Assembly (NCBI GenBank): GCA_047631875.1
Contig: JBLIAZ010000001.1
Coordinates: 1-41,276 of the forward strand
From: Saprospiraceae bacterium
Lineage (GTDB): Bacteria > Bacteroidota > Bacteroidia > Flavobacteriales_C > GCA-002722245
Direction: 5' to 3'
DNA: 41,276 bases
The notes below the pieces were generated by a model. The model did not search any database, had not been told where the DNA came from, and was given only the letters and a program-made list of their open reading frames with translations. Below, in pieces: positions 3,354-24,560 of this stretch. The position numbers were made by a program, and so were the translations under genes. How positions within the stretch are numbered: the first letter of the stretch is position 1; each line of letters begins with the position of its first letter.

Positions 3354-6146
3354 ATGACCAAACACTTTCTTTTTATTGTTTCCGTTTTTGTGCTGTCTTT
3401 GAAGTCCACAGCCTCAGCTCCTGACATCATCAACTTCACAACCAAAGAGTATAAAAGCCATTCTATAAATTACTGCTTCACCCAGGACAGTAGCGGTGTC
3501 ATGTACATCGGTAATGCTTACGGTTTGCTGGAATACGATGGTCAAACTTGGCGGAAAATTGGCCTTTCGGATGGGAAAAGTGCCTTGTCATTGGACATTG
3601 ATAAAAATGGGAGAATATACATTGGCTCCTCCTCGGAATTTGGTTATTTAAAAAAAAATGCATCGGGATTAAATGAATATGTTTCCTTAAAATCAAAGCT
3701 TCCAAAACAAGACATCAACGAAATCCTTGATTTAATTTGCGTTGATGACCAAGTGTATTTCAGAAGTTTATATACTGTTTATTGTTATAAAAACAACGAA
3801 GTCATTGAGCTCACCGAACATAGTAAAGATCAGTTAATTTATTACTTAGGGATTTATCAAGAAAAAATAAGAGCCTCAAAACAGGGGGTCGGAATTTTAA
3901 CCTTTCCCTTGTCAAAACACAGCATAAGCAATAAAGGCATTAAGGACGTTGAGATCCGAGATGTCCTTTCATTCGGAAGAAGTCAAACCTTGTTACTTAC
4001 AAGCAATCAAATTATCAGCGAAAACAATTCTTCTCGATTTGAAGAAGCGAACAAGAAATTAAAAAATGTAGAAATTTCCTGTGCTTTAACACTTAACGAA
4101 CATGAATTTTTAATTGGCACTGTCAACAAAGGCCTTTTTCATTTAAACACCGAAGGCGAAATAATTAGCAATTTTAACATGAACACAGGTTTACAGGACA
4201 ATTTTATCCACGACTTGTTTTTAGACAACTCGGGAAATATTTGGTTAGCGTACAATAATGGCGTGGGACTGTTAAAATGGAAATCACCAGTCAGGTACAT
4301 TCCTCCATCAATGGGCATTGAAGGAATGGGGTATTGTGCGCTGGTAAAAGGAGACACGTTATTTGCAGGCACTTCCAATGGTTTATATTACTTACCCAAC
4401 TGGGAAATCAGTCTTAAAAAACAGCAAAAATTTACACCTATAACTGGCATCAATGGCATCATCAATGACCTTAAATTACACAAAGGAAAACTGATTGCAT
4501 GTCAAGCAGCTGAGGTTTATCAAATTGAAGCTGGGTCCGCGGTTAGGATTTCAAACGGGTCTTGGTTTGGGTCTTGGACTTGGAAAAAACACCATCAAAA
4601 TGAAAACAAAGCTTACGTTGGAACATACGTTGGTATTTCTAATTACGAATGGAAAAACAAAACTTGGAAATTTACAAACCACGTAAAAGGTTTTAGTGAG
4701 TCTTCAAGAATGTTCGAGGTAGACAAACGAGGAGTTTTTTGGATTGTTCAGGGAAACAAAGGATTGTACAGGTTAATGCTAAACCAAAGTAGGGACAGCG
4801 CCGTATCAGTAGTGAATTATACTGACATCATGAATGTCAGTTCTCAAGATCATTTTAATGATATTTTTAGTTACCATGATTCGATTTTTGTATCAAGTTA
4901 CGGACATACTTATTACATTAAAGAAGACTCTTTGGTTCCATTAGCAAGTTTTGAAAATCTGGGAGCAAAATCTCACAGGATAAGAAAACACAAACAAGAC
5001 GGACTCTATGCAATATATGACGACCAAGCTCACATCTTGAACAATTCTACAGGTGTTTGGGAAGTTCAAAACTCACCTGTTTCATTTTTGAAATCGTACT
5101 TGGTAGGAAGCGCAGAATTCTTTTATGAAGTTTCTGAAAACACTTATTTCATTGGCACACAAGATGGATTTGCCACGTATACCCCTAAAAATATTGGGAC
5201 AACTTCTGAAACACCTTGCTTAATCAGAGGGATTGAATTACTTAATCCACATGGAGATTCTTTGATTTTTAACAGCAAACCTGTTGGAATCCAAGAGTTT
5301 TTATACGAAAATAACAACATCAGGATTTCGTACACTATTCCCTTATATGGCAACAATAAACAAATTTCTTACGAAACAAGGTTGTTTAAAAATGGAAAAG
5401 CCATGCACCAGTGGCAGCAAGTCCAGGAAGTAAACTTCAAGGAATATACTAACTTAAAAGAAGCGACTTACACTTTCAAAGTACGGGCAAAAAAAGGTGA
5501 TGAAGTGGCTGGAAGCACTGCGTTCAAGTTTATAATTTCACCTCCTTGGTACAGGACAACTTTCATGAATTTAATTTATTTCTTGTTATTTGTTGCAGGA
5601 ATATATTTGGTCATCAACTTGTTTCAAAAACAAAAAAAGAAACTTGAACTGGAAAATAAAAAAGAAATAGAAATCAAGGAAAAATTGCACAAAGCTGAAA
5701 CAATTGCCTTGGAGTTAAAAAGCAAAGAAAATGAGTTGGCATACCTCGCCTTAACCTTTACACAAAAAAAGGATTTGTTGTCAAGCCTTACTTCACAACT
5801 TGATAAAATTTCAAAGGAACTTTCCCACTCCGATCAAATTAAATTCAGGTCAGTAAAAACTGCCATTTCTAACAACCTTGACAACGAGAGTAACTGGGAA
5901 AATTTTCAAGTGCATTTTGATGAAAAAAACGACAACTTTTTTCAGAAAATTAAGCAAAAGGAAAAACGGATGAACGAATCCTATTTGCTTTTTTGCTCGT
6001 ACGTTCGAATGGGAAAATCCAACAAAGAAATTGCAGAACTCCTAAACATTTCTGTTGCTGCCGTTGAAAAACGTAAGTACCGTTTAAAGAAAAAATGGGA
6101 CTTACCAGACGACACTAGTTTCACAGAATACTTGAGGAATTTGTAA
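3354..6146 (+). CDS. Transmembrane one-component regulator: signal peptide, two-component-regulator beta-propeller repeats, Y_Y_Y domain, TM helix, coiled coil and C-terminal LuxR-type HTH
   Basis: 930 aa. It has an N-terminal signal sequence, propeller-like repeats (NGRIYIGS, GNIWLAYNNG) and a Y_Y_Y-like block (YTFKVRAKKGDEVAG). A TM helix (LIYFLLFVAGIYLVINLF) follows, then a LuxR HTH (KSNKEIAELLNISVAAVEKRKYRLKKKW). No kinase or receiver domain. Confidence 0.8.
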   Translation: MTKHFLFIVSVFVLSLKSTASAPDIINFTTKEYKSHSINYCFTQDSSGVMYIGNAYGLLEYDGQTWRKIGLSDGKSALSLDIDKNGRIYIGSSSEFGYLKKNASGLNEYVSLKSKLPKQDINEILDLICVDDQVYFRSLYTVYCYKNNEVIELTEHSKDQLIYYLGIYQEKIRASKQGVGILTFPLSKHSISNKGIKDVEIRDVLSFGRSQTLLLTSNQIISENNSSRFEEANKKLKNVEISCALTLNEHEFLIGTVNKGLFHLNTEGEIISNFNMNTGLQDNFIHDLFLDNSGNIWLAYNNGVGLLKWKSPVRYIPPSMGIEGMGYCALVKGDTLFAGTSNGLYYLPNWEISLKKQQKFTPITGINGIINDLKLHKGKLIACQAAEVYQIEAGSAVRISNGSWFGSWTWKKHHQNENKAYVGTYVGISNYEWKNKTWKFTNHVKGFSESSRMFEVDKRGVFWIVQGNKGLYRLMLNQSRDSAVSVVNYTDIMNVSSQDHFNDIFSYHDSIFVSSYGHTYYIKEDSLVPLASFENLGAKSHRIRKHKQDGLYAIYDDQAHILNNSTGVWEVQNSPVSFLKSYLVGSAEFFYEVSENTYFIGTQDGFATYTPKNIGTTSETPCLIRGIELLNPHGDSLIFNSKPVGIQEFLYENNNIRISYTIPLYGNNKQISYETRLFKNGKAMHQWQQVQEVNFKEYTNLKEATYTFKVRAKKGDEVAGSTAFKFIISPPWYRTTFMNLIYFLLFVAGIYLVINLFQKQKKKLELENKKEIEIKEKLHKAETIALELKSKENELAYLALTFTQKKDLLSSLTSQLDKISKELSHSDQIKFRSVKTAISNNLDNESNWENFQVHFDEKNDNFFQKIKQKEKRMNESYLLFCSYVRMGKSNKEIAELLNISVAAVEKRKYRLKKKWDLPDDTSFTEYLRNL

Positions 6147-6152
6147 TTCTTG

Positions 6153-6169
6153 ACAGGTTAATAACCTGT
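6153..6169 (+). terminator. Short perfect hairpin just after the regulator stop codon (weak terminator candidate)
   Basis: acaggtt-aat-aacctgt. No T-tract follows. Confidence 0.25.
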
Positions 6170-6195
6170 TAACATCTACTTCTCTAAATTTTCCC

Positions 6196-6222
6196 TTGAT
6201 AGTCTTTTATGACTTATCTTTG
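6196..6222 (+). promoter_or_regulatory. Candidate Bacteroidota-type promoter for the thi operon (TTG ... TATCTTTG)
   Basis: TATCTTTG at 6215..6222 matches the TAnnTTTG -7 consensus. TTG at 6196..6198 lies 16 nt upstream. The site sits immediately 5' of the riboswitch. Confidence 0.35.
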
Positions 6223-6230
6223 TTGGGTAA

Positions 6231-6322
6231 TCTTTAGGAGTGGTTAGTAGCTTTTCACAAAGTCAAAACCTGAGAAATATCCTTTGAACCTGAATTGGTT
6301 AGTACCAACGTAGGAAAAAGAA
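6231..6322 (+). promoter_or_regulatory. TPP (THI-box) riboswitch
   Basis: ggagtgg...cctgagaaatatcctttgaacctgaattggttagtaccaacgtaggaaa matches the conserved TPP aptamer core (CUGAGA; ACCUGAUcUGGuUAaUACCAgCGUAGGgAA). It lies directly upstream of thiS-thiC. Confidence 0.85.
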
Positions 6323-6393
6323 GAGTCCAATTTCGGGCTGATATTTTCAACCCCTTTAGCATTACTTGTACTTAAAACTATTGAACAAGGCGT

Positions 6394-6597
6394 ATGCTTT
6401 CAATTAAACTAAATGGTAATGATCAGGAAATGCAGGATGACATCTCCTTGCTCAAAGCTGTTGAATCTTTAAACATTCCACAAAATGGAATTGCGATTGC
6501 TGTAAATCAACAAATTATTACCAAAAGCAATTGGGAGAATACCTCCTTGAATAACAACGATGAAATTCTAATTATAAAAGCCACACAAGGCGGATAA
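6394..6597 (+). CDS. thiS: Sulfur carrier protein ThiS
   Basis: 67 aa with a ubiquitin-like length and a C-terminal ...ATQGG diglycine. It is the first gene after the TPP riboswitch. Confidence 0.8.
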   Translation: MLSIKLNGNDQEMQDDISLLKAVESLNIPQNGIAIAVNQQIITKSNWENTSLNNNDEILIIKATQGG

Positions 6598-6606
6598 TAA
6601 CTTTAA

Positions 6607-8475
<1,869 letters not shown>

Positions 8476-8483
8476 TTCAAGTA

Positions 8484-9098
8484 ATGAAATTAGTAGTACT
8501 TACTTCTGAAAAGGAAATTAAACACGAAGCAACAGTTCTAAACGAACTGTTTGCTCACGGCTTGATGACCCTTCATTTAAGAAAACCTTTATTTCAAATT
8601 GAAGAATATAGGGGGCTACTAGATGGCATTGAACCAAATTATTACGACCGAATAGTCATCCATTATTATCACGAGTTATGCGGCGAATATGGTTTGAAAG
8701 GGGTGCACTTACAAGAAAAACCTCGACAAAGTTTGGGAGCAAAACTTGTCAGTTACGTTAATGGATACCAAAGTAGCAGCTACATCATAAGTAGCTCCTT
8801 TCATAGCTCTGAAGAAATTGTGGAATGCTCAGCTGAATTTGATTACGTGTTATTAAGCCCTGTCTTTGATTCCATTTCCAAAAAAGGATACCCCGGACAA
8901 GGATTTAACGTACGCCATGTGAAAACACTTGTTGTTGGCATGGGAGGAGTAAACGAAAAAACAGCTCAAAAAACTTTCAATTTAGGTTATCGTGGCGCAG
9001 GAGTACTTGGAGGAATTTGGAATTCAGATAATCATTTGGAAAGCTTTTTAGCCATTCAAAAAGCATGTAAAAACATAGTCAAATTGACTGTTCAATGA
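8484..9098 (+). CDS. ThiE-fold paralogue (thiamine-phosphate synthase-like, possibly TenI-type)
   Basis: 204 aa with TIM-barrel ThiE/TenI-like blocks (LHLRKP, GVHLQEK, SSSFHS, LLSPVFDSISKKGY). It is shorter and more divergent than the second ThiE at 9880. Confidence 0.65.
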   Translation: MKLVVLTSEKEIKHEATVLNELFAHGLMTLHLRKPLFQIEEYRGLLDGIEPNYYDRIVIHYYHELCGEYGLKGVHLQEKPRQSLGAKLVSYVNGYQSSSYIISSSFHSSEEIVECSAEFDYVLLSPVFDSISKKGYPGQGFNVRHVKTLVVGMGGVNEKTAQKTFNLGYRGAGVLGGIWNSDNHLESFLAIQKACKNIVKLTVQ

Positions 9099-9871
9099 AA
9101 AGCACACAACGACATACACCCATTAATCGACCTTTTGTATTAAGCATTGCAGGTTTGGACCCATGTTCGGGTGCTGGACTCACAGCTGACATCAAAACCA
9201 TGGAACGGTTAAAATGTTACGGCTTGACAGTATGTAGTGGCAACACGGTACAAAATGACAAGGAATTATCAGAGGTGCATTGGACCCCTTTAAAGGTCAT
9301 GAAGTCTCAAATTGATTTGCTTTTTGAACGTTTTGAAATTGATTTTGTAAAAGTGGGAATCATTGAAAATTGGTCGGTTTTGAATAAAGTAATCGATTAC
9401 TTATTACTCAAAAGCGCATCAATAAAAATCATTGTGGATCCGGTAATGAGTGCCTCGTCCTCTTTCAAATTTCATGCTACTGACCACAGTGAGTTCACAG
9501 CAATGTTAAAAAAGATTCACCTGCTCACTCCAAACTATTTAGAATTCAAAAAATTAACCAACGGCAATAACGAACAAGAACGGATTTCAACCATCACCAC
9601 ACATTGTAATTTACTACTCAAGGGAGGACACAGGGAAAGCGACAACAAAAAAGGTCGAGATGAACTGTATTTGACCAATGGGAAAACCTTTGTTTTCAAC
9701 TCTAAACGCTCGCTTGTTTTTGAAAAACACGGGAGCGGATGTATTCTTTCTTCAGCAATAACCTCCTATTTAGCATTAGGAACACCACTTAACAAAGCTT
9801 GTTACAAAGCAAAAAAATATACAGAAAATACCTTGAGTTCTAACAAAACTTTATTGGCATATCACTTTTAA
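9095..9871 (+). CDS. thiD: Hydroxymethylpyrimidine/phosphomethylpyrimidine kinase ThiD
   Basis: 258 aa with VLSIAGLDPCSGAGLTADIKT and a GSGC anion-hole-like motif near the C-terminus. The start overlaps the preceding stop (ATGA). Confidence 0.85.
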   Translation: MKSTQRHTPINRPFVLSIAGLDPCSGAGLTADIKTMERLKCYGLTVCSGNTVQNDKELSEVHWTPLKVMKSQIDLLFERFEIDFVKVGIIENWSVLNKVIDYLLLKSASIKIIVDPVMSASSSFKFHATDHSEFTAMLKKIHLLTPNYLEFKKLTNGNNEQERISTITTHCNLLLKGGHRESDNKKGRDELYLTNGKTFVFNSKRSLVFEKHGSGCILSSAITSYLALGTPLNKACYKAKKYTENTLSSNKTLLAYHF

Positions 9872-9879
9872 TTTGTTCT

Positions 9880-10572
9880 ATGTATAAGAAAATCATTCTT
9901 CCAAAAACGTATTACATTTCCCAGGGGAATGAAAGTGAGGATCACCTTACCAACATTAAAAACGTGTGTGAAGCAGGTTGTAAACTGGTTCAATTGCGCT
10001 TAAAAAATGTGGAAGAAGGTGAATACATTCAAATTGCTCGTGCTGCACTAGAAATTTGTGAAACATACGATGCATTGTTGATCATAAATGACAAAGTAAG
10101 GGTTGTTTTGCAAAGCGGCGCACATGGAGTACACCTAGGAAAAGAAGACATCGACCCAATAGAAGCTAGAGAAGTTTTACCTGAGGGCACCATCATTGGA
10201 GGAACTGCAAACACTTTAGAAGATTGCAAGAAATTAATTGCTCAAAATGTGGATTACATAGGTTTAGGCCCTTTCCGGTTTACTGATACGAAATCCAACT
10301 TAAGTCCTGTCATTTCTTTGAATGACTATGCTCAAATTTGCGCCTATGTTCAAACAGACAGCCCAAACACCCCCGTGTTTGCTATCGGTGGAATTGTCAA
10401 GGAAGACGTTGCTTACATATTCGAAGAAGGAGCACATGGAATTGCCATGTCGGGCGCTTTGTCTACTGGGAATTTGGTAGAGCTAAGCCAAACGATAGCC
10501 TACTGCGAAAACTTAGATGCGACAGAAAACGCCATCCAAACAAACGAGGACAAAGGACGAACCGCCGAGTGA
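9880..10572 (+). CDS. thiE: Thiamine-phosphate synthase ThiE
   Basis: 230 aa with VQLRLKN, LIINDKVRV, GVHLGKED, IGGTANT and GLGPFRFT. It carries a short acidic C-terminal tail. Confidence 0.85.
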   Translation: MYKKIILPKTYYISQGNESEDHLTNIKNVCEAGCKLVQLRLKNVEEGEYIQIARAALEICETYDALLIINDKVRVVLQSGAHGVHLGKEDIDPIEAREVLPEGTIIGGTANTLEDCKKLIAQNVDYIGLGPFRFTDTKSNLSPVISLNDYAQICAYVQTDSPNTPVFAIGGIVKEDVAYIFEEGAHGIAMSGALSTGNLVELSQTIAYCENLDATENAIQTNEDKGRTAE

Positions 10573-10660
10573 AACGAACAACTGAACACAACTGAAAATA
10601 TACACTAGTAAAGAAGTGAACTCCTTTAAAAGGAAAAAAAGCGTAAACAAACAATTAATT

Positions 10661-11446
10661 ATGTCTGTAACAATAGAAAACGATCAATTAATCATAGCCG
10701 ATAAGTCATTCAGCTCCAGGCTGTTCACTGGCACTGGAAAATTCAGCGATTCATCCGTGATGCGAGAAGCCCTACTTGCAAGTGACAGCGAATTAATTAC
10801 AGTTGCTTTAAAAAGGGTTGACGTGCATGACGAACAAGATGATTTGTTAGCCCATTTATCACATCAACACATTAATTTATTGCCGAACACTTCTGGTGTT
10901 CGTACTGCTAAAGAAGCCGTTTTTGCCGCTGAACTTTCACGCGAAGCACTGGAAACAAACTGGATAAAATTAGAAATCCATCCTGACCCAAAATACTTAT
11001 TGCCTGACCCTATTGAAACTTTAGCGGCAACTGAACAATTGGTAAAAAAAGGATTTGTGGTGATGCCCTACATTCATGCCGACCCTGTATTGTGCAAACG
11101 ACTTGAGGATGTAGGAGTGCAGTGCGTTATGCCATTAGGCGCTCCAATTGGAAGTAACAAAGGATTAAAAACACAAGAGTTTTTAGAAATTATCATTGCA
11201 CACAGCAACGTACCTGTCATTGTAGACGCGGGCATAGGGTCACCATCCCACGCGGCTTTCGCTATGGAATTGGGTGCTGATGCTGTACTGGTTAACACTG
11301 CTATTGCAGTATCAAAAAACCCGATAGAAATGGCCATAGCATTTAAACTTGCTGTACAAGCAGGAAGAATGGCCTACACCGCAAAACTTGCCCCAGTAAA
11401 ACAACATGCCGAGGCAAGCAGCCCTTTGACTAGTTTTTTAAGTTAA
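10661..11446 (+). CDS. thiG: Thiazole synthase ThiG
   Basis: The ORF track starts at GTG 10616, but ATG 10661 ([28 protein letters not shown]) gives the canonical ThiG N-terminus. Conserved blocks: [32 protein letters not shown]. Confidence 0.9.
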
Positions 11447-11459
11447 GTATAACAAGCAC

Positions 11460-12572
11460 ATGAGCACTTTTCAAGACTTATTCGACACATACAATTGGGA
11501 TGAAACCCTGAACAGCATTTTCAGCAAAACGGAAAGTGACGTACTGCGGGCATTGGGTTCTGATAAACGAGATTTAGAAGATTTTAAAGCATTGATATCT
11601 CCTGCGGCAATTCCTTACTTGGAGAACATGGCGCAAATTAGCAGGAAACTCACTAAAAAACGTTTTGGAAACACGATCCAAATGTACGCTCCAATGTATT
11701 TGAGTAACGAATGTCAAAACATTTGCACTTATTGTGGATTCAGCATGACCAACGTAATTCCACGAAAGACATTAACTGACCAGGAAATATTAAAGGAAGT
11801 TGCTTTTTTAAAAGCCAAAGGTTACGACCACATTCTTTTGGTTACAGGTGAGGCAAACCAAACTGTCGGTGTACCATACATCAAAAATGCCATCAATTTG
11901 GTAAGGGAACATTTTTCGAATCTCACCATTGAAGTACAGCCAATGAACCAAGAGGAGTACGAGTTATTGATCGAAAATGGATTGTACGCGGTCCTCGTTT
12001 ACCAAGAAACTTACCACCGTGCTGAGTATAAAAAACATCACCCAAAGGGACGAAAATCTAACTTTGATTACCGTTTGGATACTCCCGACAGACTCGGAAA
12101 AGCAGGTGTGCACAAAATTGGATTAGGGGCTTTGTTTGGATTAGAAGACTGGCGAGCAGACAGCTTTTTTGCAGCACTTCACTTGAGATATTTGCAAAAA
12201 ACATATTGGAAAACTAAGTATTCCATGTCTTTTCCTAGGCTTAGACCTCACAGCGGAGGCTTGGAGCCTAAAGTGGAAATGACGGACAAAGACTTGGCAC
12301 AATTAATTTGCGCATTCCGTTTGCTTGATGAAGACTTGGAACTTTCAATTTCAACACGTGAAAGTGAGGTGTTCAGAAACAACATCGTAAATTTTGGAGT
12401 CACATCCATCAGTGCTGAATCAAAAACCAACCCTGGAGGATACGTAGTAGCACCAGAATCCGAGGAGCAATTTCAAATTTCGGACGAGCGGAGCACTGAG
12501 GAAGTAGCCACGATGTTAAAAAACCAAGGATTAGAAGTAGTTTGGAAAGACTGGGCAAACAATTGGGAATGA
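11460..12572 (+). CDS. thiH: 2-iminoacetate synthase ThiH (radical SAM tyrosine lyase)
   Basis: 370 aa with the radical SAM cluster motif CQNICTYCGF. Its length and its position after thiG are typical of ThiH. Confidence 0.9.
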   Translation: MSTFQDLFDTYNWDETLNSIFSKTESDVLRALGSDKRDLEDFKALISPAAIPYLENMAQISRKLTKKRFGNTIQMYAPMYLSNECQNICTYCGFSMTNVIPRKTLTDQEILKEVAFLKAKGYDHILLVTGEANQTVGVPYIKNAINLVREHFSNLTIEVQPMNQEEYELLIENGLYAVLVYQETYHRAEYKKHHPKGRKSNFDYRLDTPDRLGKAGVHKIGLGALFGLEDWRADSFFAALHLRYLQKTYWKTKYSMSFPRLRPHSGGLEPKVEMTDKDLAQLICAFRLLDEDLELSISTRESEVFRNNIVNFGVTSISAESKTNPGGYVVAPESEEQFQISDERSTEEVATMLKNQGLEVVWKDWANNWE

Positions 12573-20966: not shown

Positions 20967-21443
20967 TTAGGAAGCTTTTATTCCTTGAGGTGGTTTCCTT
21001 TTTTTTATAACTCTTCTTTTTCCGCTTTCATTGTACGAATCTGAACTCTTATTTTTTTTGTCCCTTTTCCAAAATTTAAACGAAAAAGAACGTTTTTTTG
21101 AAGTAGTAGAACCATATGAATCTTTTCCTTCCTTTACCATTTTTCTTGAAGACGAGCTTGAATAGCTATCCTTAAAGTTCAAACCACTTCGCTTTCTGGA
21201 AGAGGAAGAATAACTATCATAGTAATTCAACGATCTTCTTCTGCGAGGTGCGGAAGCATAACTGTCCCCATAGTTATTCCGCTTTGCTTTTTTCGATTTT
21301 GAAGAAGTCGATTTTGCATACGCATCATGATGACTTTTTTGTTTTGGTGAATTAGAAAACCCAAAAGCATCATTGAATTTTGTGCTTTGACAGCCAACAA
21401 TGGCAATAAGACTTACAATTAAGATGAATATTTTTTTTACCAA
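20967..21443 (-). CDS. Highly basic, Ser/Tyr-rich repeat lipoprotein (TTG start)
   Basis: 158 aa with a lipoprotein signal (IAIVGCQS). About six degenerate D-[SA]-Y-x-S...[KR][KR] repeats follow. No in-frame ATG could give the signal peptide. Confidence 0.6.
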   Translation of the reverse strand: MVKKIFILIVSLIAIVGCQSTKFNDAFGFSNSPKQKSHHDAYAKSTSSKSKKAKRNNYGDSYASAPRRRRSLNYYDSYSSSSRKRSGLNFKDSYSSSSSRKMVKEGKDSYGSTTSKKRSFSFKFWKRDKKNKSSDSYNESGKRRVIKKRKPPQGIKAS

Positions 21444-22119: not shown

Positions 22120-22149
22120 TTTGAGCCAGTAAATATTTTACTAGCTTTG
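22120..22149 (+). promoter_or_regulatory. Candidate Bacteroidota-type promoter for the MBOAT operon (TTTG-N18-TAGCTTTG)
   Basis: TAGCTTTG at 22142..22149 matches TAnnTTTG, with TTTG at 22120..22123. The site lies 17 nt upstream of ATG 22167. Confidence 0.4.
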
Positions 22150-22166: not shown

Positions 22167-23369
22167 ATGTTTTTCGAATCGTACAACTCTTTCATTACCA
22201 TCCTCCTACTGGTTGGCTTATACCAACTAGCCAAATTATTATGGAATAACGTTGTTCTTAAAAACCTGCTGCTTCTTTTAAGTTCATCTGTAGTATTGTT
22301 GACAATCATCAAAGAACACACATTTTATTGCTTATTAGGATTATCAGTTTTAATTTACTTTTTAGGGTTGTTTTTTTCGAAGAAGAAAGCGAGGACAGGT
22401 TTCGCAACTACTGTTGCAGTTTTAGTATGCGCATACGCTATTCGAAGTTTCCCCTTACTACAAAACATCATATCTAACTCTGTACTTGACTTCCTAAACA
22501 AACCAATACTCTCGGTTCAAAAAATAGGTTTATCCTATATTTTATTCAGGATGATACATTGGCTTGTTGATAGCTACAAGAAAAAAATTGTTGACTACCA
22601 GTTTTTGACCTTCATCAATTACATACTGTTTTTTCCAAGCTTCCTAGCTGGTCCCATTGACACCTATAATAATTTTCAATATTATGTTGCTAAAAAAAGT
22701 AGAAAATTAGATTCACGGTTATTTTTTTCGGGAATATTTAGAATATTTCTAGGTGCATTTAAAACCCTTTTCCTTGTACCAATGTTAATTGAGATAAGTA
22801 CTGACTACACTTTATTACTTGACGATTACCCTGTAATAGTTGCCCTTACAATAAGTACAATTTGTTATTCTATTTATATTTATCTTGATTTTTCCGGTTA
22901 TTCCGACTTAGCCATTGGATTAGCTTACTTATTTGGAATAAAAACACCTGAAAACTTTAACTCCCCTTACTTGGCAAGAAATATTTCGGAATTTTGGAAA
23001 CGATGGCACATCACCTTTTCCAATTTTTTACGGTTGTACGTTTTTGGATTTTTCAAGCAATTATCTATTCGAGTATTTGGTAAAAAAAAATACTTCTTAG
23101 CAACTGTAGCGCTGTACCTATTAACTTTTTTAGTTTGTGGAGTTTGGCACGGAAGCACCCTCAACTTTATTATGTGGGGTGCATGGCACGGCCTAGGAAT
23201 AAGTATTTACAAATTTTACGACCTGTATTTATACAAAAAACTTCCATATACAAAAACCTCGATATATAAAGTAGTGTCTGTATTGTGTACATTTCTATTT
23301 GTTAGTTATGGCTGGATCTTCTTCCATTACTCCTCAGAACAATTAATTGAAATTTTACAACTGTTGTGA
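22167..23369 (+). CDS. MBOAT-family membrane O-acyltransferase (DltB/AlgI-like, DltB-sized)
   Basis: 400 aa and polytopic. Motifs: GLSYILFRMIHWLVDSY, FFPSFLAGPI, WKRWHITFSNFLRLYVF and the conserved His block CGVWHG. Confidence 0.85.
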   Translation: MFFESYNSFITILLLVGLYQLAKLLWNNVVLKNLLLLLSSSVVLLTIIKEHTFYCLLGLSVLIYFLGLFFSKKKARTGFATTVAVLVCAYAIRSFPLLQNIISNSVLDFLNKPILSVQKIGLSYILFRMIHWLVDSYKKKIVDYQFLTFINYILFFPSFLAGPIDTYNNFQYYVAKKSRKLDSRLFFSGIFRIFLGAFKTLFLVPMLIEISTDYTLLLDDYPVIVALTISTICYSIYIYLDFSGYSDLAIGLAYLFGIKTPENFNSPYLARNISEFWKRWHITFSNFLRLYVFGFFKQLSIRVFGKKKYFLATVALYLLTFLVCGVWHGSTLNFIMWGAWHGLGISIYKFYDLYLYKKLPYTKTSIYKVVSVLCTFLFVSYGWIFFHYSSEQLIEILQLL

Positions 23370-24457
23370 TTAGGTTAAAAGACATATACCGTTTAAAAAA
23401 CATGTCCTGGTTTGGGAAAATGATACTCTTAGTAACAATTGGTTTGTTAGCAGCCTCAAGCATCATTCCCGATCATCAATACAATGCACCTACCAGGCAA
23501 ATTCATGTAATAAACGGACTACACTTTAAGTATGGTGACAAAGCCAAAATCAGTCATTATATACAAAGCATAGTTTCAAACAATGGGTATTTATGCATGG
23601 GAACTTCCGAATCGGGAGACTTAGGCGGGAAAAATTACTTCCACTTTCTAAACAACGCTTCAGTGCTTACTTCAGGGTTTTCATCACTTGCTGGAGCGGG
23701 ACGAACGTGTGGTATTCATGAACCTTGGCTACTTCAGAACAAGGACATCATCAAGGGCTTGAACATAATTTATTACATCAATCCAGTTTATTGGAACACC
23801 GAAATGAATGATGCTTCCCTAGAATATAGCAGTAGGTACTTAAACTATCAATTTGCTAGTTCATACAAAAACAAAAGTTTCAACAGTGAACAATACGTCA
23901 AGGAATATTCAACATTCAATAAATTTAAGCATATCGTAAGCTATACCATTAGAAATGCTAGACGTTCCTATTTTGAAGATTTAAAAGAAACCCTAAACCC
24001 AACAAATTGGGCACGAAAAACGGCAAAAGTTGATATTAATAAAACTCCGCTAAAAATTGATTCAACAAGTGCTATTACTAATTTGGACAGCACTTACAAC
24101 ACTAAAAAAAGTTTTGTAAATAAAGAATGGTTTCGACCTATAGACACGGTAAGTACTTATCGAGACAAAGAACTCACCAGCTTTATCCGCAACTGCAAAT
24201 CTCTTGGAGTTAACCTCACCTTGGTTATGGGTCCTTACAACGAAAAATTCATTTCCAACTATCAGCCATCAAGTTTACAGGCGTATAAACAAACAGTAAA
24301 AAAAATCAGTAACATCGCATTAAATGAAGGAGTACAAATTATTGACTGCACGGATTTATCAAATCAATTTGGTATGTTCGATGACCATCAACATCACTCC
24401 CAATTTGCAGCAAAAAAAATAGCTAACAAAATCAAACTACATGTTTTACAAAAATAA
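23366..24457 (+). CDS. DltD-like (SGNH-like fold) membrane-anchored extracytoplasmic acyl-transfer partner protein
   Basis: 363 aa. GTG 23366 overlaps the MBOAT TGA (GTGA); ATG 23402 is an alternative start. It has an N-terminal anchor helix and, in DltD order, the blocks GTSESGD, LAGAGRT, INPVYW and C-terminal DDHQHH (D-x-x-H). Confidence 0.65.
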   Translation: MIRLKDIYRLKNMSWFGKMILLVTIGLLAASSIIPDHQYNAPTRQIHVINGLHFKYGDKAKISHYIQSIVSNNGYLCMGTSESGDLGGKNYFHFLNNASVLTSGFSSLAGAGRTCGIHEPWLLQNKDIIKGLNIIYYINPVYWNTEMNDASLEYSSRYLNYQFASSYKNKSFNSEQYVKEYSTFNKFKHIVSYTIRNARRSYFEDLKETLNPTNWARKTAKVDINKTPLKIDSTSAITNLDSTYNTKKSFVNKEWFRPIDTVSTYRDKELTSFIRNCKSLGVNLTLVMGPYNEKFISNYQPSSLQAYKQTVKKISNIALNEGVQIIDCTDLSNQFGMFDDHQHHSQFAAKKIANKIKLHVLQK

Positions 24458-24560
24458 ACTCGTCGTTGGATTTCTGATTTTAGCCATTTGTACAATGGCT
24501 ATTTTTCTTTTGATGATTTCTGAGACAACAGAAATAAAATATATTTACGCTGATTTTTAG
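24441..24560 (+). CDS. Unannotated 39-aa single-pass microprotein, DltX-like (C-terminal YIYADF)
   Basis: ATG 24441 to TAG 24558..24560 gives MFYKNKLVVGFLILAICTMAIFLLMISETTEIKYIYADF. It overlaps the upstream CDS by 17 nt. It has a Lys-rich N-terminus, one TM helix, and a C-terminal aromatic-x-Tyr-x-acidic-Phe hexapeptide as in DltX. Confidence 0.5.
   Translation: MFYKNKLVVGFLILAICTMAIFLLMISETTEIKYIYADF

Follow-up and report, generated by a model that had tools for sequence, protein, structure and literature searches.

The question raised by this locus is whether a Gram-negative bacterium can run an acyl relay of the Dlt type with no ligase and no carrier encoded beside it. The stretch analyzed here (the window) is an entire 41,276-bp contig, JBLIAZ010000001.1, from a metagenome-assembled genome (MAG) labelled Saprospiraceae bacterium. 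Its initial annotation singled out an MBOAT gene overlapping a gene for a DltD-like protein and proposed a Dlt-like envelope acylation relay in Bacteroidota, with no DltA or DltC nearby. Our results support that proposal, on the evidence of protein folds, invariant residues, a cassette conserved as a unit and its presence in a Saprospiraceae MAG. They also supply the key third component, which the module as first described had omitted: a DltX-like microprotein carrying the acyl-shuttle tyrosine. The initial annotation had spoken of a three-gene relay, and three genes do exist, but its coordinates ended at 24457 and so missed the third of them (24441..24560). By analogy with known systems, the three overlapping genes are likely to form an operon for a transmembrane acyl relay of the Dlt/PatAB type, one that probably places an acyl group on the Gram-negative envelope.

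All three genes lie on the forward strand: the MBOAT gene at 22167..23369 (400 aa, ATG start), the DltD-like gene at 23366..24457 (363 aa, GTG start) and the DltX-like micro-ORF (open reading frame) at 24441..24560 (39 aa, MFYKNKLVVGFLILAICTMAIFLLMISETTEIKYIYADF). The first two stand exactly where they had been placed, the MBOAT stop and the DltD-like start sharing the 4 nt GTGA at 23366-23369, and the DltD-like gene overlaps the micro-ORF by 17 nt; read from these overlaps, the trio is a single predicted operon. The GTG start of the DltD-like gene is supported by N-terminal homology, since the 12 extra residues that it provides align with the N-termini of relatives (consensus MxxIxxxYKTK). 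Automatic gene calls on two contigs with the identical cassette begin this gene at ATG 23402 and lose the 12 conserved residues (23366-23401), and on both of these contigs the 39-aa gene is left uncalled. Database labels for the two large genes vary among AlgI, DltB, DltD and hypothetical; the window MBOAT itself is identical to NCBI MFT6715393.1, deposited as "AlgI".

The microprotein has a basic N-terminus, one 20-residue hydrophobic helix and a 13-residue tail ending YIYADF, in which Tyr36 is encoded at 24546-24548; an N-in/C-out topology fits the positive-inside rule. The hexapeptide fits the acyl-shuttle motif FxYxxF of DltX and PatA (PMC12148441, PMC13653941). DltX is a single-pass microprotein, and the tyrosine of its C-terminal FxYxxF ferries D-alanine from DltB to the serine of DltD, while in PatA the motif FIYANF is fused at the C-terminus of the protein and its tyrosine is auto-acetylated from acetyl-CoA (PMC12148441). 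The 49-aa DltX of L. plantarum ends in FIYNEF (PMC13653941) and that of S. thermophilus in FLYFGF (PMC11035591). Judged by its sequence, the window microprotein would have the whole DltX feature set: a single-pass protein of about 40-50 aa, a tyrosine hexapeptide at the extreme C-terminus, and a gene encoded together with those of an MBOAT and an SGNH partner.

The same small gene recurs throughout the family. In an automated search, an equivalent micro-ORF of 35-39 aa overlapped or abutted the DltD-like stop in 74 of 76 loci, and in the other two there was, respectively, a micro-ORF on a non-ATG start and only 7 nt of downstream DNA. Among the 57 distinct peptides, Tyr at position -4 and Phe at -1 are invariant and Ala at -3 hardly varies, and there is strong conservation of Asp-Ile at -9/-8; Tyr, Phe, Thr and Cys all occur at position -6, and the family consensus of the hexapeptide is YIYANF. 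Both synonymous codons are in use at the invariant residues (TAT 34 and TAC 27 for Tyr; TTT 46 and TTC 15 for Phe), the signature of purifying selection on the microprotein as a protein. When 32 microproteins were scanned (27 from the cassette family, two from a sister subfamily, two from divergent cassette subgroups and one from the Dlt-like operon of locus L095, described below), DltX (PF12459) was the Pfam family that the most of them matched, with 8 of the 32 pooled sequences and a best E of 0.0018.

The motifs quoted for the two large proteins in the initial annotation were all found in their places. Those of the MBOAT are FFPSFLAGPI (aa 155-164), WKRWHITFSNF (277-287) and CGVWHG (324-329), and its description as DltB-like agrees with both fold and architecture. 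It scores 95 bits against Pfam MBOAT (PF03062; gathering score 27), and its sole NCBIfam match is the DltB model TIGR04091, at 191 bits against an equivalog cutoff of 375 that is not reached. The alignment to this model runs end to end (residues 8-386 of 400 against model positions 7-376 of 380); the other cassette MBOATs score 193-203, and an AlgI-like control reaches 142 and aligns only across the core. In a PDB sequence search, DltB was the only relative found. An AlphaFold2 model built on an alignment of 57 homologues has a predicted local distance difference test score (pLDDT) of 90, and Foldseek places DltB (8jem/6bug) at the top, with TM scores of 0.76-0.78 over 410-427 columns and eukaryotic MBOATs behind. 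His281 (codon 23007-23009) and His328 (23148-23150), invariant in the 57 homologues, align with His289 and His336 of DltB, which are named as key active-site residues (PMC11035591). All 57 are about 400 aa long and do not match the fused form of the PatA/AlgI type, which has about 470-520 aa and two extra C-terminal transmembrane helices; the window MBOAT ends …IEILQLL, with neither an FxYxxF motif nor an extra C-terminal transmembrane pair. Its likeness to DltB is thus mainly architectural.

For the 363-aa protein the corresponding motifs are GTSESGD (aa 79-85), LAGAGRT (108-114), INPVYW (138-143) and FDDHQHH (338-344). They supply the SGNH blocks, with G-T-S81-E as block I (Ser codon 23606-23608), G110-A-G112 as block II, N139-P as block III and D340-x-x-H343 (24383-24394) as block V, and G-T-S-E, G-A-G, N-P and D…H are invariant across 48 aligned family members. 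The correspondences to DltD that had been proposed at the outset (GSSE, SPxWF, DxxH) agree with the canonical-type DltD sequences recovered in our searches. By sequence the resemblance is distant: 31 bits against Pfam DltD (PF04914; gathering score 22.7), over residues 217-343 only, 23 bits against the NCBIfam DltD equivalog TIGR04092 (cutoff 150, not reached), and no match in a PDB sequence search. The AlphaFold2 model (pLDDT 93) includes an N-terminal helix, the membrane anchor, and its 12 best Foldseek matches in the PDB are all DltD (E 6e-7 to 2e-5, TM score 0.49-0.59), followed by generic SGNH esterases. The outcome first named as one that would undo the proposal, a protein lacking a DltD/SGNH-like fold or the catalytic Ser, Asp and His, did not emerge; the model supports a membrane-anchored DltD-like SGNH protein, a putative acyltransferase with a predicted triad of Ser81, Asp340 and His343. 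A profile search of 1.84 billion representative proteins gave 142 matches at E <= 1e-3, 77 of them at E <= 1e-30, and reached canonical DltD only at about 1e-5; the family is thus small and distinct.

A survey of cassette distribution, one of the checks suggested at the outset, drew on 36 loci from GTDB genomes and 46 from metagenomes, or about 60 non-redundant loci. The trio is strictly co-inherited in them and is the only thing conserved: the MBOAT gene lies directly upstream of the DltD-like gene in all 54 non-redundant loci that have upstream sequence, and the flanks vary by lineage and are mostly of unrelated functions. In no relative was the cassette found within a characterized polysaccharide O-acetylation locus, which had been named as the finding that would undo the proposal. 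Almost all the named carriers are Bacteroidota MAGs, assigned to the Flavobacteriales (including Cryomorphaceae, Crocinitomicaceae and Parvicella), the Bacteroidales and the Saprospiraceae. A further locus (L030, JBLIKY010000065.1) belongs to a MAG that bears the label Lentimonas (Verrucomicrobiota), and two belong to MAGs named "Chitinophaga pinensis"; misbinning or wrong labels may account for these, rather than a true spread beyond the main Bacteroidota lineages. A literature search for Dlt-like systems in Bacteroidota returned nothing relevant, although a 2023 survey of DltX could already mention orphan triads. The cassette family is an unstudied one, confined so far to uncultured Bacteroidota and inconsistently annotated.

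Two kinds of relative help to place it. In a sister subfamily of the DltD-like protein (E 1e-24 to 1e-14), a microprotein ending …ITYAGF or …VAYIGF is encoded upstream of the MBOAT, giving the order X-B-D (L040:3609-6329; L041:400-3063; L042; L039). The MBOATs of this subfamily are 474-488 aa long because a soluble domain of about 90 aa is added at the C-terminus, and they have no fused shuttle motif. Elsewhere, tandem MBOAT-SGNH systems occur, in which the split-shuttle cassette is followed by an AlgI-like pair (L013:8748-13589; likewise L054 and L059). The second system of L013 consists of a 472-aa AlgI-like MBOAT ending …FIYFQF and a 326-aa SGNH-like partner (GGDSRV … DGSHLH). In contrast to that fused MBOAT, the cassette MBOATs of about 400 aa have no fused shuttle motif, and the microprotein is always present instead.

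Drawn by analogy with the published biochemistry of DltBXD and PatAB, the relay would run in three steps. The MBOAT would take an acyl group from a cytoplasmic thioester and, with His328 and His281 in an outward-facing funnel, esterify Tyr36 in the YIYADF tail of the microprotein. The acyl-tyrosine tail would then swing to the periplasmic DltD-like domain and acylate Ser81 of the predicted Ser81/Asp340/His343 triad. Finally, the DltD-like enzyme would acylate a hydroxyl group on an envelope molecule.

Comparison with the DltX-DltB-DltD proteins of Firmicutes, which D-alanylate teichoic acids, shows how much is shared. Both systems have an MBOAT of about 400 aa without fused shuttle helices, an N-terminally anchored SGNH transferase of the DltD fold with Ser, Asp and His, and a separate single-pass microprotein of about 40-50 aa (last six residues YIYADF here, FIYNEF or FLYFGF in DltX), and in both the components are encoded in one operon. 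The differences are as plain. The genes dltA and dltC are absent from the cassette operon, from the window and from most of the roughly 60 loci; the gene order is B-D-X here and X-A-B-C-D in Dlt; the first residue of the motif is Tyr here (Phe, Thr or Cys in relatives) and Phe in Dlt; and the host is a Gram-negative member of the Bacteroidota, a phylum that is not known to have teichoic acids. Since the scores fall far under both NCBIfam equivalog cutoffs, the cassette cannot be filed as Dlt; its architecture is that of DltX-DltB-DltD minus the linked ligase and carrier.

The cassette also has much in common with PatA/PatB, which O-acetylate peptidoglycan, and with AlgI/AlgJ/AlgX. The setting is Gram-negative, an MBOAT is paired with a periplasmic SGNH transferase, the shuttle hexapeptide is of the same type as in PatA (FIYANF in NgPatA, YIYANF as the cassette-family consensus), and neither arrangement has a dedicated ligase or carrier, consistent with an acyl-CoA donor. 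In PatA and AlgI, however, the MBOAT carries the motif as a fusion, on two additional transmembrane helices, and there is no microprotein (PMC12148441), whereas here it is a separate gene, and the SGNH partner is of the DltD type rather than that of PatB, AlgJ or AlgX. Because the fused motif is absent, the cassette is not of the PatA/AlgI type. The same paper, from 2025, describes the "other" (non-Dlt) MBOAT/SGNH pathways as having no DltX-like microprotein (PMC12148441).

A closer look at carrier-dependent relatives sharpens the contrast. Locus L095 is a metagenomic contig with a complete Dlt-like C-D-X-B-A operon (3477-7823), encoding in order a PP-binding carrier of 83 aa, a DltD of 397 aa, a microprotein of 50 aa, an MBOAT of 386 aa and an AMP-binding ligase of 503 aa. 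The microprotein gene (4978-5130), also uncalled, overlaps the DltD stop and its product ends in FIYQQF. Since the contig encodes a protein with a type IX secretion system (T9SS) C-terminal tail, it is probably from Bacteroidota. The microprotein overlapping the end of DltD and the short MBOAT are common to L095 and the cassette; the DltC-like carrier and the DltA-like ligase are present only in L095, and the two systems are distant relatives (DltD E 2e-5 in the profile search, MBOAT 126 bits). A second distant DltD relative, L096, has the canonical order A-B-C-D, and both of these carrier-dependent loci keep the A and C genes adjacent. The complete set on a distantly related, Bacteroidota-like contig marks the triad without A and C as a distinct variant.

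What, then, loads the MBOAT? Searches for donor genes covered the window and the cassette loci. The absence of an adenylating enzyme or carrier from the window, asserted from the start, was upheld: Pfam scans of 35 ORFs, a six-frame hidden Markov model (HMM) search for adenylation-thiolation (A-T) didomains and motif scans revealed no gene with an AMP-binding or PP-binding domain. In about 55 of the 60 loci, neither an ANL enzyme nor a carrier is encoded within 10 kb of the cassette, and the six-frame A-T search of the window and all cassette loci (about 1.1 Mb) found one gene family only, in five non-redundant loci. Stand-alone carrier ORFs sought by two regular expressions and a T-domain HMM were all spurious, with the proviso that this HMM is narrow and a divergent acyl carrier protein (ACP) could escape it. 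The DltC-docking helix of DltB was considered as a discriminator between donors and rejected. The residues reported for it (M298/V301/F302/M305/R313 in L. plantarum; PMC9338922) align to G294/K297/Q298/I301 of the window MBOAT, with K-P-x-I-x-L-x-N as the family consensus. They are thus not conserved in the family, nor in the MBOAT of L095, and the comparison is uninformative because the carrier-linked MBOAT of L095 also has the family F-K-P. Since the cassette travels alone across unrelated contexts and, in about 55 of 60 loci, is linked to neither a ligase nor a carrier, a ubiquitous acyl-CoA, most simply acetyl-CoA, is favored as the donor, at about even chances. Somewhat less probable is a carrier-bound acyl group, supplied by a dedicated A-T or DltC-like protein or by a housekeeping ACP encoded elsewhere. 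On balance, we prefer the former over the latter.

The strongest competing explanation is that the cassette is a carrier-dependent Dlt analogue, for which a ligase and a phosphopantetheinyl carrier encoded elsewhere (DltA/DltC-like, of the A-T family, or a housekeeping ACP) load an aminoacyl or unusual acyl group. There is precedent, in that Dlt is the only MBOAT system with a separate microprotein whose mechanism is known, and it uses a carrier (PMC12148441). Moreover, the window MBOAT is colinear with DltB, and the C-D-X-B-A set of L095 indicates that such systems are at work in the background of this phylum. True Dlt-type loci keep ligase and carrier adjacent, however, and the cassette loci as a rule do not. 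The exceptions are five loci of a single Bacteroidales clade (L019, L022, L026/L068, L065 and L067), in which a nonribosomal peptide synthetase-type A-T didomain of 600 aa lies 68-371 nt downstream on the same strand, followed in four of the five by a gene for an LpxL-family acyltransferase; in L067 there is no such partner. Considered as proof of a carrier donor, the adjacent didomain had to be downgraded, as its homologues form an independent trio or a fusion elsewhere. In 3 of 3 other contexts they stand in a trio of a 90-aa ORF, A-T and an LpxL-like gene, away from any MBOAT or DltD gene, and in one homologue (P0247, 964 aa) A-T and LpxL are fused into one protein. The syntenic close relatives L021 and L032 have no A-T/LpxL-like pair, and these three observations together argue for the A-T gene as a separate module. 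Less directly, by inference only, the best 120 of 447 A-T matches include none on a contig as long as the cassette-bearing ones of 3.6 Mb and 1.2 Mb. The A-domain pocket, read at positions that we take to be set by GrsA motif anchors, is S-A-L-M-L-G-I-L-M-K, hydrophobic and with Ser replacing the amino-binding Asp235. On these grounds an alpha-amino acid is an unlikely substrate, and the sequence suggests a fatty or other non-amino acid. All told, we regard a carrier-dependent Dlt analogue as unlikely, though it deserves to be taken seriously.

A different objection is that the microprotein is merely structural, or is not made at all, so that the MBOAT would pass its acyl group directly to the DltD-like enzyme or the acceptor; or that the DltD-like protein is a trimming esterase. 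Models of Dlt before 2023 did without DltX, a regulatory role for DltX and DltD is still under discussion in one structural paper (PMC11035591), the gene caller did not call the micro-ORF, and SGNH folds are mostly hydrolases, with esterases following DltD among the Foldseek matches. Nevertheless, Tyr-x-x-Phe-stop is invariant in the 57 distinct peptides despite the turnover of synonymous codons, and the microprotein is present in every locus and also in the sister subfamily, where the gene order is different. The cassette MBOATs have no fused motif of the kind found in other bacterial MBOATs, and acyl-tyrosine intermediates have been published for both DltX and PatA (PMC12148441). We consider this family of objections very improbable. 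The relay reading advanced here nonetheless has several points standing against it. Every carrier of the cassette is an uncultured MAG; the window's own microprotein has no match to Pfam DltX at E <= 10; in pairwise comparison the MBOAT scores 126-129 bits to Dlt-type MBOATs and 114 bits to an AlgI-like one, a slight margin; and the A-T didomain directly downstream in five loci, once without an LpxL-like partner, leaves room for a carrier-borne donor. The genomic contexts that bear on the acceptor, to which we now turn, come mainly from one clade and amount to few independent observations.

In this Bacteroidales clade the cassette closes a block of genes for a Wzx-type flippase, a WbbJ-like hexapeptide acetyltransferase, a DegT-type sugar aminotransferase and a glycosyltransferase of family 4 (GT4). 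Six loci have a gene for cysteate synthase (TIGR03844, 481 bits against a cutoff of 325) ahead of the cassette. In four of the six it is directly upstream of the MBOAT gene and on the same strand (L016:5373-6713; L021:1933-3228; L065:901-2196; L023), and in L022 and L032 it lies further upstream; some clade members have the Wzx/hexapeptide-acetyltransferase/DegT/GT4 block inserted between cysteate synthase and MBOAT. Sulfonolipid synthesis in Bacteroidota begins with this enzyme, cysteate synthase (PMC11211663). Wzx or related glycan genes occur within 10 kb of the cassette in a few other lineages (L003, L047, L069, L071). The window's own neighborhood holds no hint of the acceptor, and in loci of the Flavobacteriales type the flanking genes (transporters, T9SS proteins, nitrilase) are no guide to function. 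As weak hints, then, the neighboring genes point to a flipped glycan or an outer-membrane lipid. A surface glycan exported by Wzx, or lipopolysaccharide (LPS), would have roughly an even claim to be the acceptor; an outer-membrane lipid such as sulfonolipid is a less likely choice, and peptidoglycan an improbable one.

So far, MBOAT-SGNH systems have come in two forms: Dlt, with a separate microprotein and a carrier donor, and all the others, with a fused motif and an acyl-CoA donor. We tentatively suggest, while rating the full claim below even, that the cassette represents a third architectural class of bacterial MBOAT-SGNH system, a split-shuttle relay without a dedicated carrier that would install an undescribed ester on the Bacteroidota envelope (on a Wzx-flipped glycan, LPS or sulfonolipid). 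If true, it breaks the published pairing of separate microprotein with carrier donor and of fused motif with acyl-CoA donor. The combination of a Dlt-type split shuttle with no linked ligase or carrier makes the family a natural test of what sets donor choice in MBOAT relays, and the cassette, the X-B-D sister subfamily and the C-D-X-B-A operon, taken together, could throw light on the gain or loss of the donor module in Dlt. The acyl esters of envelope polymers (D-alanyl teichoic acids, O-acetylated peptidoglycan or alginate, for example) govern how well cells resist cationic peptides, lysozyme and phage, and they also shape host recognition. The cassette points to an uncharacterized envelope modification of this general kind in a major Gram-negative phylum, among environmental and gut or rumen Bacteroidota, and to a conserved gene of 35-39 aa overlooked by annotation on the contigs checked.

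The A-T/LpxL-like module found beside the cassette in the Bacteroidales clade merits a comment of its own. It lies at L022:8203-10955, L019:1998-4732, L026:5959-8699 and L065:4890-7615, with stand-alone copies at L090:8714-11725, L091:8714-11745 and L093:8720-11753; the A-T protein has about 600 aa and the LpxL-family acyltransferase about 311 aa, and the 90-aa ORF preceding the stand-alone A-T has no family match. The AlmEFG system of Vibrio cholerae, which adds glycine to lipid A, likewise encodes together an adenylating enzyme, a phosphopantetheinyl carrier and an LpxL-family acyltransferase (PMC4278540). In the neighbor module A and T are fused, as in an AlmE-AlmF fusion plus AlmG, and, unlike in AlmEFG, the pocket is hydrophobic and lacks Asp235. 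The likeness concerns this module alone, which is outside the window and has no general linkage to the cassette. In some loci cysteate synthase is encoded nearby, which makes the module a candidate for N-acylation in the sulfonolipid pathway or for a modification of lipid A.

Around the cassette in the window, the flanks are as initially annotated, with a DUF179/AlgH-like gene upstream (Pfam, 141 bits) and a convergent ORF without a family match downstream. The AlgH-like gene was rejected as a functional partner, since it lies near the cassette in no other locus. The Bacteroidetes -7 promoter consensus is TAnnTTTG, and a candidate element of this type, TAGCTTTG at 22142..22149 on the forward strand, a match to the consensus only, is present as first noted and ends 17 nt before the MBOAT ATG; a TTTG (22120-22123) lies 18 nt further upstream. 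Of 46 non-redundant loci, 15 have TAnnTTTG in the 100 nt preceding the MBOAT start; the background frequency of the motif, taken over these loci as a whole, is 0.057 per 100 nt. A scan of the window for sigma-70 promoters and terminators gave counts at or below shuffled expectation; the Bacteroidota consensus differs from that of sigma-70. A terminator-like hairpin (24481-24501, 8-bp stem) with a T-run to 24510 falls inside the codons of the micro-ORF's transmembrane helix, and, given that the terminator scan as a whole was at shuffled expectation, it is probably a chance match. On the reverse strand at 20967-21443, a 158-aa ORF without a Pfam match has a lipoprotein-like signal (…IAIVGCQ) followed by low-complexity repeats rich in Ser, Lys and Arg (…DSYSSSS…KKR…). 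Otherwise, the Pfam scans of the 35 ORFs identified housekeeping genes, including ribonucleotide reductase, guanylate kinase, an M23 peptidase and a thiamine operon. The last of these, at 6616-12572, comprises thiC, a thiE-like gene, thiD, thiE, thiG and a thiH-like gene, and is preceded at 6226-6333 by a thiamine pyrophosphate (TPP) riboswitch (Rfam RF00059, 66.5 bits).

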